A stretch of DNA of 64,000 nt from an uncultured bacterium (lineage in GTDB: Bacteria > Patescibacteriota > Minisyncoccia > Moranbacterales > UBA2206), in NCBI GenBank assembly GCA_903831805.1, contig CAIKZD010000009.1:145192-209191 (forward strand), read 5' to 3'. Below, in pieces: positions 43,765 through 52,286 of the stretch. Every line of letters starts with the position of its first letter. Within the stretch, counting starts at the first letter, position 1. The position numbers were made by a program, and so were the translations under genes. The notes under the pieces are model-generated. The model had not been told where the DNA came from. It saw only the letters and a list, made by a program, of their open reading frames with translations, and ran no database searches.

Positions 43765-45156
43765 TTATTTCTGAATTATTTTCCAATACCCGCCTTTATC
43801 TGGACCAACTCGTTCAATCAATCTTTTTTCTTTCAATTTTCGCAGATTGTTTTCAACATTTTTCTCAGCCATATCTATCTGATGAGCAATTTCAACAATT
43901 GATATTTTTTCATCCCCCCTTATTAAAGAAATGATTTTATTTTGATTCTCTGTCACCTTTTCACCCACCTTTTCACCCACCTTTTCACCCACCTTTTCAC
44001 CCACCTTTTCACCCACCTTTTCACCCACCTTTTCACCCACCTTTTCTTGTTCCCTTTTCTTAAAAGAAATCACAAAAGCGCCTGCTTTTTCAGAAAATTC
44101 AGGTAACTTATTGCCATTTTTTTTGCATTCCTCAACTATTCGCTGAAAACCAGTTCCCCAGCTTTCCACCAAGTTAACTTGATGGAAAATTTCCACCAGT
44201 TTTTTATTTCTCGGAATAGAACGGTTTTCTGAAAAAATACTTTTTATATCAATCTCTTTCGGCAAAACCCCCGGACTCCAAATCTCTAGAGAGTTATCGA
44301 ATATCCTGATTTGAATATTTCCCGAATCATTATAATCTCGGTGAATCAATGCGTTAATGACCGCCTCTCGCAGTGCCAAGAGAGGATAGTCCCAAATTTC
44401 ATCCCGCTCCGGCTTTCCTGTAATAACAAATTCCGTGTTGATATGCCTCTTGATAAAATTCATTGCTTGATCTACGCAATGAATAATACTTCCGTCGAAT
44501 TCTTTTTCATCCAAAAATTTAACCACACTTTGACCTTTAAATCTGGCTGCTTTTACGATAGCCTGGTAGATATCAGTATTGTTTTTCACAAAGCAAAGAT
44601 ATCCGGCGTTTGTAATTTTATTTTTAGATATCAACCCAAGCTTTTTTAAAAAATCGATTTCGGAGCTAATTCTAAATTTATAGTATTTATTGTTTATTTT
44701 TTTAATAAGATCAGCGTCAAATTCTATTTTTTTAATTTCTTTTTCTAGATACATTTTATCAAAATCAGACAAGGCATATCTCTTTATAAGCTCTCGCACT
44801 TCAGTTTGAGACATTTTTTGATTAGTTTTTCCAACTCTAATATACGCCCTTTCAAAGGCAAAGACCGGCTTATTATCTGATTCTGAAACTTCAATTTCCA
44901 CAATTTCGCCAAGGCCGAAGGTTTTCACGTTTATGGAAGGATATAATATTGGATCAGTATTGTTTTTTATTTTATTTGCAAAGTCTTCTATCGTACTTTT
45001 TCCAACTTGCAGCCCAGTTGCAACCCCGCCATCATCCATCCCAACAATAACCTTGCCGCCTTTTTTGTTGGCAAAAGCGCAAAGAGAAATTATCGCCTCT
45101 TTCCATTCGGAGAACGAAGATTTTAATTCGATTTTTTCAGATTCTTTTAATTGCAT
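43765..45156 (-). CDS. COG2865-type Schlafen-like ATPase / putative transcriptional regulator (AlbA_2-like N-domain, HATPase_c_4-like core, C-terminal wHTH)
   Basis: 463 aa. A C-terminal wHTH follows an (EKVG)x7 linker. Confidence 0.6.
   Translation of the reverse strand: MQLKESEKIELKSSFSEWKEAIISLCAFANKKGGKVIVGMDDGGVATGLQVGKSTIEDFANKIKNNTDPILYPSINVKTFGLGEIVEIEVSESDNKPVFAFERAYIRVGKTNQKMSQTEVRELIKRYALSDFDKMYLEKEIKKIEFDADLIKKINNKYYKFRISSEIDFLKKLGLISKNKITNAGYLCFVKNNTDIYQAIVKAARFKGQSVVKFLDEKEFDGSIIHCVDQAMNFIKRHINTEFVITGKPERDEIWDYPLLALREAVINALIHRDYNDSGNIQIRIFDNSLEIWSPGVLPKEIDIKSIFSENRSIPRNKKLVEIFHQVNLVESWGTGFQRIVEECKKNGNKLPEFSEKAGAFVISFKKREQEKVGEKVGEKVGEKVGEKVGEKVGEKVGEKVTENQNKIISLIRGDEKISIVEIAHQIDMAEKNVENNLRKLKEKRLIERVGPDKGGYWKIIQK
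43954..44046. repeat. in-frame 12-nt tandem repeat (ttttcacccacc x ~7.5) encoding (EKVG)n
   Basis: Perfect tandem copies seen directly. They lie inside CDS 43765..45156, between the ATPase core and the HTH. Confidence 0.85.
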
Positions 45157-46173: not shown

Positions 46174-46965
46174 CTAGTTTTCAAAACTCTTCAAATACTC
46201 CGGTAATTTCAAGATCCACTCGGCCTGCTGCGGATAGAAAAGAAATCTTTCCACATCTTTGGCAGCTTGCTTCAAGTCACTTTTCCGGACTTGCGCCTGC
46301 AGGAAATCAATCAGCTCTTGCCGATTGATGATGGCAATTTTTTTCTCTTTAAAAATTTCATAATTCGGCTCAATATTTTTCTGACTCAGGAACCAAACCA
46401 AGTCGTAGAAGTCGCGGCCCTTTTGGTAGGGGCGAAAAATAATGGCCAAGATTTTCTGGGCGAAAAGTGTTTCCAGAGTATTGGAGATGATATTAAAACT
46501 CTTACCGTACGCAAAAATTTGCCTTGCTTCATAACGGATGCTCTTATATGGCGTCGGGTCAATTTCAAATTTAATTTTCAATTTTTGATTCGAAAAATCA
46601 GTCAATGCCATTTCTCTCATAACCTCCGAAAATTTTACATTGATAATGATAATATTTTCCGTTTTTTTAACAGTTGTGTCGGTTGGAAATCCCAATTCTC
46701 TCAGTTTCTTTCCGATAAATCCGGCTAATTCTTCGTAATCCAGCCCGTCTTGGATCAAATCGAAATCCAAATCTTCGGAAAATCTTTCGATTTTATGGAT
46801 AAAACGCAAGCAAGTTCCGCCTAAAAATGACACGTACGGCCCAAACTTAGAATTGAAAACCACGGCTAAAATTTCCGTTTGCAAATATTCGGTCAAAATG
46901 CGCCGCGGAATATTTGGAATACTATTTCTTTTGACGTAATCTTCCAAGAAAAACTTATCTAACAT
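46174..46965 (-). CDS. abiEii: AbiEii/AbiGii-family nucleotidyltransferase toxin (DUF1814)
   Basis: FLGGTCLRF...ERFSEDLDFDL signature of AbiEii nucleotidyltransferases. Confidence 0.65.
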   Translation of the reverse strand: MLDKFFLEDYVKRNSIPNIPRRILTEYLQTEILAVVFNSKFGPYVSFLGGTCLRFIHKIERFSEDLDFDLIQDGLDYEELAGFIGKKLRELGFPTDTTVKKTENIIIINVKFSEVMREMALTDFSNQKLKIKFEIDPTPYKSIRYEARQIFAYGKSFNIISNTLETLFAQKILAIIFRPYQKGRDFYDLVWFLSQKNIEPNYEIFKEKKIAIINRQELIDFLQAQVRKSDLKQAAKDVERFLFYPQQAEWILKLPEYLKSFEN

Positions 46966-47575
46966 TTTTTTGATAGTTTAAAACACTTTCGATTAATTTG
47001 TTGACTTTTCTATTGTTGAGCAGGTTTTTGTATAAGTCCAATTTTTTCTTTTTAAATTTAAACTCCTCATCAATTCTCATTTCTTTCCAAAAATCGATAT
47101 CATCTTTAATTTTGTTCTTATTCAGATAGATATAATCAATAAGTGCTTTTTCAGGAGTGGCAATATTAAAGGAAACATTTTTTTCCATCCGAGCTTCATA
47201 TCCGGTGAAAAATTCAGGCTTAATTTTTTGATATGTAAAATTTCCGAAGGGATTCTTGAAATACTTCGTAGTTTTTGAAGTCACTGAGGTATAAGTTCCG
47301 GGGATATCAGGGATAATCCCATAATAATTCAATGCGAATTCCAAGCTCAAATATGATGGCTCGTAAATTTTTTCTGCAAAAACTTTTGGATCAAGTTCAC
47401 TTTTTACTTTGGCAAGAATATACAAACCATCTTTTATCTTATTTAAGTAGCCTTTTTTCAACCAAAATGAAATCTGAACCATAATATTTTTTTGATCAAA
47501 AAAAATACTTTTTACCTCGGAAGCGGTAAAAACTGGATAATTTTTAACTTTTTCTTCAAAGTCGTAAAATTGCAT
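46955..47575 (-). CDS. abiEi: AbiEi-like antitoxin / transcriptional regulator (type IV TA)
   Basis: 206 aa. 11-nt overlap with the abiEii start. N-terminal wHTH-like region. Size and context fit AbiEi. Confidence 0.55.
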   Translation of the reverse strand: MQFYDFEEKVKNYPVFTASEVKSIFFDQKNIMVQISFWLKKGYLNKIKDGLYILAKVKSELDPKVFAEKIYEPSYLSLEFALNYYGIIPDIPGTYTSVTSKTTKYFKNPFGNFTYQKIKPEFFTGYEARMEKNVSFNIATPEKALIDYIYLNKNKIKDDIDFWKEMRIDEEFKFKKKKLDLYKNLLNNRKVNKLIESVLNYQKNVR

Positions 47576-49656: not shown

Positions 49657-50613
49657 CTACTTTGACATTTTATAGTATTCCTTGTACCACTCCACCCAAT
49701 TCCCAATTCCCTTTTCAATTCTGGTAGTTGGCTTCCACCCAAGCTTGCGAAGTTTCTTGATGTCCGCCACGGTGGTTGGCACGTCGCCCGGTTGCATCGG
49801 GAGCATTTTCTTCTTGGCCTTTTTGCCCATATTCTCTTCCAGCACTTCGATGTAGCGCATGAGCGTCTCTTCTTTGTCGCCGCCGATGTTCATCACACCA
49901 TAACCCTTGCACTTATCGAGCACCGTGAGCGTACCTGAGACTATATCATCAATGTACGAGAAGTTGCGGCTCATTTTGCCACGATTGAAAACATTGATCG
50001 GTTTGTCATGCGCAATGGCATCAGTAAACAGGAACAGGGCCATATCCGGTCGGCCCCAAGGACCATAAACGGTAAAGAAACGCAGGGCGGTGATATTCAG
50101 GCCGTAGATGTGATGATAGACATGGGCGATGAGCTCATCAGCTTTCTTGGACGCGGCGTAGGGCGAAATTTGCGTGTCTACGGGGTCAGTTTCGGAGAAA
50201 GGCGTCTTAGTATTATTGCCATAGACCGAAGAAGAAGACGCAAACACAAAATTTTTGATCTTATATTTCACCGCCGCTTGGAGCAGATTAAGACTGCCCA
50301 TCACATTCACGTCGAAATATAATTTGGGATTGAGCAAAGAATTGCGGACGCCCGCCATGGCGGCCAGATGGATGACTTTATCAATTTTTTCATGCTTGAA
50401 AATCTTCTCGATCAATTTCTCATCCCGAATGTCTCCGCGGTAGAGTTTGAATTTGTAACCTTTCAAAAACTTTTTGATGCGTGCTTCTTTCAGGGTCGAA
50501 TCATAATAATCGTTGAAATTATCAATGATAACCACTCGATCCCCCCGGTCCATTAATTTTTTGGCGCAAGCGCTGCCGATAAACCCCGCCCCGCCGGTAA
50601 TGAGTACTTTCAT
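49657..50613 (-). CDS. NAD-dependent epimerase/dehydratase, UDP-glucuronate 4-epimerase-like
   Basis: 318 aa. MKVLITGGAGFIGS...DNFNDYYD...YAASK. Length and motifs resemble Cap1J/GAE-type UDP-GlcA epimerases. Confidence 0.65.
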   Translation of the reverse strand: MKVLITGGAGFIGSACAKKLMDRGDRVVIIDNFNDYYDSTLKEARIKKFLKGYKFKLYRGDIRDEKLIEKIFKHEKIDKVIHLAAMAGVRNSLLNPKLYFDVNVMGSLNLLQAAVKYKIKNFVFASSSSVYGNNTKTPFSETDPVDTQISPYAASKKADELIAHVYHHIYGLNITALRFFTVYGPWGRPDMALFLFTDAIAHDKPINVFNRGKMSRNFSYIDDIVSGTLTVLDKCKGYGVMNIGGDKEETLMRYIEVLEENMGKKAKKKMLPMQPGDVPTTVADIKKLRKLGWKPTTRIEKGIGNWVEWYKEYYKMSK

Positions 50614-50654
50614 ATTAGTTTCTTAGTTGATTAGTTTCTTCGTTAATTAGGTAA

Positions 50655-50782
50655 AAAGCCGAGCTTTAAGCGGTGGACTTTTTTATGTAATCGAAAAGCT
50701 TGGCTTTAAATGCTAACCGCCCCCAGTCCCAAAGTTGAACTTTTCACTCGCACTGAAACACACGTCGTCTAAAGTTCAACTT
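50655..50782. promoter_or_regulatory. array of four palindromic operator-like sites spaced ~40 nt apart
   Basis: AAAGC-N3-GCTTT at 50655-50667 and 50695-50707. AAGTT-N-AACTT at 50732-50742 and 50772-50782. An outer inverted repeat gccgagctt/aagctcgg also flanks the array. Confidence 0.5.
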
Positions 50783-50799
50783 TTTGAATAAGCTCGGAC

Positions 50800-50828
50800 T
50801 TGTTATACCTCAATTTTATTAGTATAAT
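50800..50828 (+). promoter_or_regulatory. sigma70-like promoter TTGTTA-N17-TATAAT, leaderless
   Basis: The -10 ends 6 nt before the ATG at 50835. Confidence 0.5.
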
Positions 50829-50834
50829 AGATTT

Positions 50835-52286
50835 ATGTCAAAGACCGTTTTTATGCAAAAATTGCGTACGAATCCGAGCCTGCTTTTGGGGCTGATTTTG
50901 GCTGCCTTCTTTTTGAAAGAAGTCTTTTTGGCTGACATTTTTCCAATGTTCACCGGGCAAGATGAAGCACGGCACTATAACACTGTTCAATATTTGGCCT
51001 ATCCTCACGTGATAATGGAAAAACCGACGGCGGAACAGAATAAAGATCTGCTGGAAACTTATAATTTTTCCACTGAGATAAAAAATACTATTGTGGCGGC
51101 GGGATTGGACGCCAATCGGGACAATGCTTTTGATAAGATGAATTTCGCCCCGGACAGTTTCATCGGCCAAAATGAAAATGAGATTAATGGGCGTATTTGG
51201 GCTCCCGTCAATCAAATCAATCCACCGGACATCGCCGGCACCACTTCGCTCTATCATAAACTGGCGGCTTTCATTGAAAAAGCTTTGGCCGGCCAAAGTA
51301 TCTTAATTAGATTCTACGCCGCGCGAATTTTTTCTATCCTGCTTGGCACCTTGGCCCTATTTTTTTTCTATCTGATTATCAAAAATTGCGGCTTTGTAGA
51401 TAAGACCGCCCTCGCTATGACCACTCTCATTTCTTTCCAACCGCGCTTTTCCATTTATTATGTTTCCGTCAACTATGACGCCCTACTCATTTTGGCCTTT
51501 GCTGTTTTTGCCTGGGCCGGCACGTTGCTCCTAAAAAACGGCGCTTCGTGGAAAAATCTCAGTCTCCTCGCCGCGTCCGCGCTGCTCGGATATTTTGATA
51601 AGGGCACCGGTATCGTCCTGATTGTGATTTTTATTTTTATCATGGCCTGGCTTTTCTGGCAACGCTTCAGCGCTAAGGGGAAAAATTTCCAATATTTATC
51701 TTTAGCGGTTTTTGCCTTGGCCGCCGCCCTCATTCTTTATGCCTTTGGCAGTTACTTGCCGCTCAATGGCGGCCAAGATCCATTGGGCATCCTTGGTTCA
51801 TTGTGGCAATATTTTTCCAAAACCCTAACCCTCGGAAGATTGTCTTTGACCTCACGAACATACTGGGGCTCACTCGGTTGGACGGACAGTGCCCTCTTGG
51901 ACTACGCCGTCAATTTCATCTGGCTCATTGAAGCGGCCGCGCTCGGCGGCTTGCTTTGGTTCCTATTCTCCAAAAACCCACCGAAGCATCTGCCTCAGAA
52001 AAAATACATTCTCTTCGCCCTCACCATGGTTGTCGCTCTGCAGCTCGGCATCCGCTTGGCTGATTGGAAATATGTCGCTGGGACTGGAAAAATTGCCCTA
52101 GGCGCGCCCGGCCGCTATTTCATTCCCAATCTCGTATCGCATATCATCCTAGTGTTCACCGGTCTCGGGATGCTGCTGCGCAAAAAAGAATATTTGGAAG
52201 ACGCCCTGGTGCTCGGGGCTGTGTTGATGTTTTCTTTCTCGGCCTATTTGATTTTTAACGTCATAATTTTCCGTTTCTATCTATAA
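50835..52286 (+). CDS. polytopic membrane protein (DUF2142-like / putative GT-C-fold)
   Basis: 483 aa, about 11 TM helices, large first external loop. Confidence 0.4.
   Translation: MSKTVFMQKLRTNPSLLLGLILAAFFLKEVFLADIFPMFTGQDEARHYNTVQYLAYPHVIMEKPTAEQNKDLLETYNFSTEIKNTIVAAGLDANRDNAFDKMNFAPDSFIGQNENEINGRIWAPVNQINPPDIAGTTSLYHKLAAFIEKALAGQSILIRFYAARIFSILLGTLALFFFYLIIKNCGFVDKTALAMTTLISFQPRFSIYYVSVNYDALLILAFAVFAWAGTLLLKNGASWKNLSLLAASALLGYFDKGTGIVLIVIFIFIMAWLFWQRFSAKGKNFQYLSLAVFALAAALILYAFGSYLPLNGGQDPLGILGSLWQYFSKTLTLGRLSLTSRTYWGSLGWTDSALLDYAVNFIWLIEAAALGGLLWFLFSKNPPKHLPQKKYILFALTMVVALQLGIRLADWKYVAGTGKIALGAPGRYFIPNLVSHIILVFTGLGMLLRKKEYLEDALVLGAVLMFSFSAYLIFNVIIFRFYL

Follow-up and report, generated by a model that had tools for sequence, protein, structure and literature searches.

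The intergenic array and its promoters

The window, i.e., the whole 64 kb stretch of DNA that was analysed, contains a 221-nt gap (50614-50834) separating two divergent genes. To the left lies a gene for an NAD-dependent sugar epimerase/dehydratase (49657-50613, minus strand), which has no obvious Shine-Dalgarno sequence upstream of its start, and to the right a gene for a GT39/PMT_2-type membrane glycosyltransferase (P0001; 50835-52286, plus strand), assigned from its domain matches and homologues. An earlier note on this DNA had called the latter gene DUF2142-like, and some homologues of its product do also match DUF2142. Protein homologues assign the organism to Moranbacteria (Patescibacteria).

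The gap holds four palindromic boxes, each of 13 nt and of the form AAAG-N5-CTTT. Box 1 (alpha; AAAGCCGAGCTTT; 50655-50667) and box 2 (beta; AAAGCTTGGCTTT; 50695-50707) are the 5' and 3' arms of module A and enclose a loop of 27 nt (50668-50694). Box 3 (gamma; AAAGTTGAACTTT; 50731-50743) and box 4 (gamma'; AAAGTTCAACTTT; 50771-50783) are the corresponding arms of module B, whose loop, also of 27 nt (50744-50770), differs among genomes. A module, i.e., a box, a 27-nt loop and an inverted partner box, therefore spans 53 nt, and the array consists of two separable modules joined by a variable spacer of 23 nt (50708-50730) that is missing in the relative L248. Boxes 3 and 4 are exact reverse complements of each other (13/13 positions complementary), and box 2 matches inverted box 1 at 12 of 13 positions, the odd position giving a G.U wobble on the plus strand. 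The boxes are flanked by GGTAA/AAGC, TCGA/AAAT, TCCC/TCAC and GTCT/TTGA, and runs of T5 or A5 border the array at both ends.

All four palindromes were found with the centres given in the earlier note (50661, 50701, 50737 and 50777), and its distinction of two classes of site, each present as a pair, also stands (boxes 1/2 and 3/4). The periodicity of about 40 nt that it described holds within each pair (40 nt), but the middle step is 36 nt, and the end of box 4 lies 16 nt, not 18 nt, from the -35 hexamer TTGTTA (50800-05). The outer inverted repeat that it saw bracketing the array, CCGAGCTT (50659-66) and AAGCTCGG (50790-97), is real; judged from its sequence, it is best read as a decayed fifth box, because a degenerate 13-mer, TAAGCTCGGACTT (50789-50801), agrees with inverted box 1 at 10 of 13 positions and shares bases with the -35 hexamer. 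Neither the fifth box nor the outer repeat is conserved in the relatives L006 or L057, and in L248 an intact inverted module A occupies the equivalent position. Beside the epimerase start is a tandem 16-nt direct repeat (50614-50645; copies ATTAGTTTCTTAGTTG and ATTAGTTTCTTCGTTA), which is not a box element; an AT-rich TTAGTT/ATTAG sequence related to the ATTAGTTTCTTAGTTG repeat is present in L006 and L248.

The GT39 gene is preceded by a promoter-like site, TTGTTA-17-TATAAT (50800-50828, plus strand), and its ATG (50835) lies 6 nt past the -10 box. This geometry is identical in six related loci, which supports the view, already put forward in the earlier note, that the gene is leaderless; CTTGTTAC...TATAAT and the 6 nt to the ATG are kept in L005, L006, L246, L248 and L249, whether boxes are present or not. 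A second site, TTGACA-17-TAAAAT (50813-50841), matching 11 of 12 consensus positions, is predicted on the minus strand, where it reads 50841-50813, so that the two promoter-like sites overlap and face each other. The minus-strand -35 hexamer, kept in relatives, comes from the opening codons of the GT39 gene (ATGTCAA). If used, this minus-strand promoter would place the whole array within an epimerase mRNA leader of about 190 nt; a promoter scan called no further minus-strand promoter between the array and the epimerase ATG.

A stretch of low GC content (about 24000-48000; 0.31-0.36 vs 0.42-0.47 on either side) stops just to the left of the array. It looks like a defence or mobile island, and carries an AbiEii toxin gene (46174-46965), its likely AbiEi partner (46955-47575) and a gene for a Schlafen/AlbA_2-HATPase-winged-helix protein with a (VGEK)n repeat (43765-45156). 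A Pfam scan of the ten ORFs neighbouring the array revealed no linked gene for a DNA-binding regulator, the sole helix-turn-helix domain among them being that of a Schlafen/HATPase protein 5.5 kb away in the defence-like island.

Conservation and pairing of the boxes

The pattern AAAG-N5-CTTT occurs at five sites in the 64 kb window, and the fact that four of the five fall within 129 nt represents a clustering far beyond chance. There are no exact copies of either motif elsewhere in the window, which contains this single array locus, and matches with up to two mismatches, like the one-mismatch matches to each motif taken separately, occur there at the chance rate. That last result, together with the abundance in the window of short palindromes of the 5-N(1-3)-5 type (5.5 per kb), is what might be said for a fortuitous cluster of AT-rich palindromes with no biological meaning. 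Besides the clustering itself, the conservation described below already refutes that idea, to which we attach a negligible probability: the boxes are exactly kept in several genomes while their loops diverge, and the same boxes are found in other genera.

Orthologous promoter loci were fetched through the GT39 protein and are unbiased with respect to the boxes. In L006 (67% identity in the GT39 protein) all four boxes are unchanged and the loops have diverged, and in L248 (68%) the promoter has boxes 1 and 2 only, with module A abutting it. In L005 (73%), L246 (64%) and L249 (55%) the GT39 promoter has no boxes, and unrelated hairpins take their place. Since the same conserved promoter can carry modules A and B, module A alone, or neither, the array is modular, and the promoter is independent of it.

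The array also occurs at the other end of the epimerase gene. L057 has the full A+B array at the epimerase 3' end, between the stop codon and a canonical bidirectional terminator, the epimerase gene being convergent with the GT39 operon in that genome. In L246, whose promoter has no boxes, the same 3' position is occupied by a partly decayed array. The short contig of L248 (2.8 kb) contains three arrays; that after the epimerase gene consists of module B and an extra box, and that after the GT39 gene of module B with an unrelated 28-nt loop, followed by inverted module A. This contig both starts and ends inside boxes, as expected where repeats break an assembly. The five copies of the window family all fall within the predicted transcription unit of the epimerase and share one orientation, which could reflect a function specific to the epimerase.

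Comparison of the window with L006 and L057 showed that none of the 52 box columns varies, vs 28 of 77 non-box columns (36%; P of about 6e-11 under equal rates), L057 having been retrieved through boxes 3 and 4 and being biased for those two boxes only. Box 1 is unchanged in L006, L057, L248 and L246, and box 3 in L006, L057 and L248. Across four genomes, 13 of the 27 loop columns of module A vary between constant boxes. This invariance, a sign of strong constraint on the sites, implies recognition of the boxes by some sequence-specific factor, and to that extent agrees with the earlier note, which saw them as binding sites. A purely selfish element would not predict strict conservation of orthologous copies, which points to a function at the level of the host.

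Each module folds as predicted on both strands, with RNA z scores of -2.7 to -4.4. Module A forms a stem of 13 bp (-21.7 kcal/mol, z = -4.4), and module B gives z scores of -3.0 to -3.1 on either strand. For a test of covariation we aligned ten non-identical box pairs, using the boxes only, joined by an artificial linker; this is a small set of related sequences. When the two boxes were paired with each other, 96.2% of positions were paired, five pairs had changed on both sides, and the covariation score was 0.26 (shuffled, 0.115), a value reached by 0 of 500 shuffled sets. When each palindrome was folded on itself, 93.3% of positions were paired, two pairs had changed on both sides, and the score was 0.109 (shuffled, 0.101), with 200 of 500 sets as high. 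A box with C..A at its centre is always partnered with one having T..G, and T..A with T..A. Judged from these alignments, the two boxes of a module co-vary as a single 13-bp stem and not as separate palindromes, a signal that inverted duplication would mimic. The suggestion in the earlier note that the region could fold as a structure is borne out to that extent, with the self-folded palindromes behaving like shuffled controls. The strand with the G.T wobble is the C-rich strand at 7 vs 2 independent loci, a bias that is suggestive and not significant.

A scan with Rfam 15, as the note had proposed, gave no match at the gathering threshold in the window, with one chance-level match (E ≤ 10) outside the array. 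Intrinsic termination was rejected as an explanation, since a terminator scan called no module, and the stems are AT-rich with 27-nt loops. Canonical terminators do lie immediately beside the element in L057, L246, L208 and L215.

Copies at unrelated sites and within genes

One genome per species was scanned for pairs of AAAGC-N3-GCTTT, with the centre triplets left free. Among the matches listed were Moranbacteria contigs with exactly the 13-mers of the window, and these 13-mers are shared across genera. At least five copies, most of them a four-box element of about 150 nt, occur in 24 kb of the metagenome-assembled genome (MAG) SO_2017_GW1_11. They lie between divergent genes, between convergent genes and directly past a stop codon, and their neighbours encode RecA, a RodZ-like protein, NusA, a DHH phosphoesterase, an AP endonuclease and a DUF192 protein. 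These are functionally unrelated, and the copies thus mark no coherent regulon. In this sister family 24 to 49 nt separate the paired boxes, whereas the centres within a module are 39-40 nt apart in four genomes of the window family; helical phasing thus appears not to be a property of the family. We considered homology between the whole window array and the SO_2017_GW1_11 element and rejected it, the likeness being limited to the boxes and 2-4 flanking bases (17-nt). An Rfam scan of the sister element yielded nothing credible.

Nested at differing points within the four-box element of SO_2017_GW1_11 is a 20-nt GC palindrome, CCTGCCTGCCGGCAGGCAGG, i.e., a repeat within a repeat (L136, 5172-5325; L208, 5072-5232; L230, 2232-2405). 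The element can also keep the same gene and swap ends between genomes, as at the DHH phosphoesterase gene (L215, 3197-3330, vs L230, 2232-2405); the epimerase gene likewise has the array at opposite ends in the window and L057. This end-swapping suggests rearrangements with breakpoints at the repeats.

Copies of the box module are also found in frame within two genes, encoding a MurE ligase (L154) and a Wzy_C-type (O-antigen-ligase-like) membrane protein (L238). Moranbacteria MurE proteins have 428-429 residues without the insert and 454-476 with it, the module encoding an insert of 28-30 residues, FPKARLFPSSSEALRIPQSQALEN. Among four insert-bearing orthologues, nucleotide identity is 69-76% in the gene outside the element and 82-99% in the 74-nt element; in each of the six pairwise comparisons the boxes agree at 26 of 26 positions. 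The L251 copy has exchanged its inner loop for another one, which forms a perfect hairpin of 9 bp. Constraint on the boxes thus exceeds that on the coding DNA of an essential gene, and the fold between them is kept. The contigs L251 and L252 (21 kb each) contain the MurE copy only.

The sequences flanking the MurE insert, ATTTTCC and GGAAAAT, are inverted and not direct repeats. The same surface loop of MurE hosts other inserts in other Moranbacteria, where protein lengths range from 420 to 525 residues. In the MurE gene of L253 (4001-5398) the insert is a tandem repeat of four copies of AATTTCCA, translated as PNFQFPISNFQ. It had been a candidate for a second hairpin element at this site, and was rejected because it is that tandem repeat and not a box element; with the AATTTCCA insert at hand, the loop appears simply insertion-tolerant and adds no support for mobility. 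The contig of L154 (DATGZC010000078.1) is filed as 'Candidatus Bathyarchaeia archaeon', but its MurE is 75-82% identical to Moranbacteria proteins and it has the Moranbacteria box module; the contig is probably misbinned. For the Wzy_C-type protein (L238, 1625-2986; P0241), a sister MAG encodes an identical protein whose start is placed 160 residues too late in the public annotation, about 25 residues before the box module, giving 291 residues instead of the 450 of the ORF. More distant homologues of this protein retain only 'KAELW' at the position of the module, which could represent a lone box, AAAGCCGAGCTTTGG.

Two other classes of palindrome were also noted. In Prevotella and Bacteroides from rumen and gut there are intergenic arrays of three to six AAAG-N5-CTTT palindromes with a strict period of 22 nt (e.g., AAAGTTSAACTTT, AAAGCATAGCTTT and AAAGTGCCACTTT). 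The 13-mers differ from one array to another, there are several arrays per contig, and the flanks are conserved (...GCTTTCCA and TTGGAAAGC). Loci listed are L008, L014, L020, L058, L100, L131, L135, L163, L195 and L212, with at least about 150 others; their link to the Moranbacteria boxes may reflect only the search pattern. A 58-nt class from marine sediment, AAAGTTCAACTTTT-N30-AAAAGTTGAACTTT (L013, L021, L044, L059, L067, L085, L094 and others), is part of a longer hairpin, CTGAAAAAA...TTTTTCAG, whose inner CTCGACAGGATTT is conserved. Its box order (RYYYAAC, then GTTRRRY) is that of integron attC sites, and it is separate from the window modules. In module B itself the order is opposite to that of attC sites (RYYYAAC 5', GTTRRRY 3'), with GTTGAAC first and GTTCAAC second on both strands, so attC was rejected as an identity for the modules.

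Relation to known repeats and likely role

The earlier note had read the array as a set of operators bound cooperatively by one or two dimeric regulators of the GT39 gene cluster. In the form weighed here, a dimeric regulator would bind each palindrome on double-stranded DNA, and the pairs 40 nt apart would act cooperatively in controlling the divergent GT39 and epimerase promoters. Boxes that are palindromic and invariant, including their centre bases, are what recognition by a protein predicts. The position of the array 16 nt upstream of a -35 hexamer would also suit an operator, as would the near-constant spacing within modules in the four window-family genomes and the promoter-like sites that likewise adjoin L230 copy 1 and L179. 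Known paired operators, such as tandem NrdR and LexA boxes, are likewise conserved palindromes of 13-16 bp, paired and near promoters. The sites here differ from them in that they are not confined to promoters, their spacing is not conserved across the family, and partner sites co-vary as reverse complements. We know of no operator consensus, considering those of LexA, CIRCE, NrdR, Fur and CRP/FNR, that the boxes resemble. The operator model fails on genomic context: the same array is found at the epimerase 3' end in L057 and L246, modules lie between convergent genes and within ORFs, the promoter is intact in relatives without boxes, the genes beside the copies are functionally unrelated, and no regulator gene is nearby. 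Moreover, separate sites on duplex DNA would leave both the covariation between boxes and the compensatory inner hairpins unexplained. The note had named random occurrence of the motifs and the lack of any bias toward promoters as signs against its own proposal; the motifs are not random, but the promoter bias is indeed absent. We consider control of the GT39 cluster by such operators very unlikely.

An alternative is a cis-acting structured RNA of the epimerase transcript, present as leader hairpins in the window, L006 and L248 or in the 3' UTR in L057 and L246, which would determine mRNA stability, processing or attenuation, perhaps via an RNase or an RNA-binding protein. The stability of the hairpins, the shared relative orientation of the window-family copies within the predicted epimerase transcription unit and the presence of other hairpins in the same leader in relatives without boxes are all consistent with this, and REP hairpins are known to stabilise upstream mRNA (PMC3733652). 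However, in the epimerase sense module A has a C.A mismatch and not the G.U wobble, and orientation is inconsistent elsewhere, the MurE mRNA having C.A and the L238 ORF mRNA G.U. A pure RNA-element model fails on this inconsistency. An epimerase-specific device does not accord with copies beside unrelated genes and within ORFs, the minus-strand promoter is a consensus match only, and the modules match no Rfam family. Such a cis-acting element of the epimerase transcript seems to us unlikely.

We think it probable, on balance, that the array is a local copy of a REPIN/BIME-like family of palindromic hairpin repeats distributed across Moranbacteria, and not a gene-specific operator. In the REP, REPIN and BIME sequences of Proteobacteria (PMC3116915, PMC2817692, PMC3733652), as here, short palindromes form inverted doublets 20-100 nt apart. 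REP doublets fold separately or as one long hairpin, and the modules here also fold as one hairpin. Further likenesses are the mosaic clusters, their location mostly downstream of genes and also within them, copy numbers that are very different between related genomes, and spacers that vary between constant units. Unlike REP sequences, the boxes have no GTAG or CGTC tag (PMC3733652), the CGTC beside box 4 not being kept in L006 or L248. The 13 nt of each box form a complete palindrome with AT-rich ends, whereas REP sequences have a GC-rich stem with a loop of 2-20 nt; the boxes cross genera, whereas REP sequences are usually species-specific; and the copy number observed here is low. Patescibacteria are not among the REP-bearing phyla listed in PMC3733652. 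A crude scan for a HUH...Y motif among 656 ORF segments (217 kb) found no RAYT-like ORF, a weak negative.

The in-frame copies recall Rickettsia palindromic elements (RPEs) and other intragenic REPs, which are likewise retained across species within coding sequences, including those of essential genes, and add a short peptide in a tolerant loop. The pattern by which RPEs are recognised, an in-frame insert present in some orthologues and absent from others, is seen for MurE in relatives and not in the window. The elements differ in that their sequences are unrelated and come from another phylum, that the element here is about 74 nt long vs about 100-150 nt, and that conservation here is stronger in the boxes than in the host gene. 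MITEs such as the Correia elements of Neisseria are also small, non-coding and intergenic, with inverted-repeat ends, and are often found by promoters or terminators, so that a change in expression is possible as a side effect of location. Here, by contrast, the terminal repeats are themselves palindromes, and we identified neither a target-site duplication (the MurE flanks being inverted) nor a parent insertion sequence with matching ends. CRISPR was rejected because there are two types of box with only two copies each, and a DNA-uptake sequence because the boxes are far too sparse. Pattern scans of viral contigs and blastn searches of phage and plasmid collections gave no match that would indicate a phage or plasmid origin. 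A literature search by sequence returned unrelated matches only, and for Moranbacteria or the candidate phyla radiation we found no literature that describes repeats of this kind.

If the REPIN/BIME-like reading is correct, the inverted 13-nt boxes, with a loop free to vary between them, would form a hairpin module on either strand, in DNA or RNA, and the window array would be a BIME-like mosaic of REPIN-like doublets, comprising module A, module B and a decayed fifth box. The boxes would be read by a putative sequence-specific protein, such as a transposase-like enzyme, a nuclease, or a host protein that binds DNA or RNA. From their distribution, we infer that the modules spread by copy-and-paste or by recombination; no transposase, target-site duplication or DNA-level pair of empty and filled sites was found with them. 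At this locus the element is most simply regarded as a passenger between the face-to-face promoters, upstream of the GT39 -35 hexamer, and it probably belongs to the leader of the epimerase mRNA, whose stability its hairpins could influence.

More tentatively, Moranbacteria, which have small, streamlined genomes, may maintain a long-lived system of box hairpins together with a conserved protein that reads the 13-mer, a counterpart of REPIN-RAYT without the GTAG tag; this is a possibility that we would not rate as likely. If it were true, the boxes would serve the cell, e.g., in DNA topology, in replication or recombination, or in the processing of RNA, and would not be simply parasitic, a role suggested by their being kept more strictly than the coding sequence of an essential host gene.

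Repeats of the REP, REPIN, RPE and MITE types shape genome rearrangement, mRNA stability and even protein sequences. Conserved palindromes by promoters in these genomes should not be annotated as operators before their other occurrences have been checked. The sharing of the same boxes across genera, their invariance inside an essential gene and the covariation of their stems provide a handle on a nucleic-acid-binding activity in this uncultured lineage.
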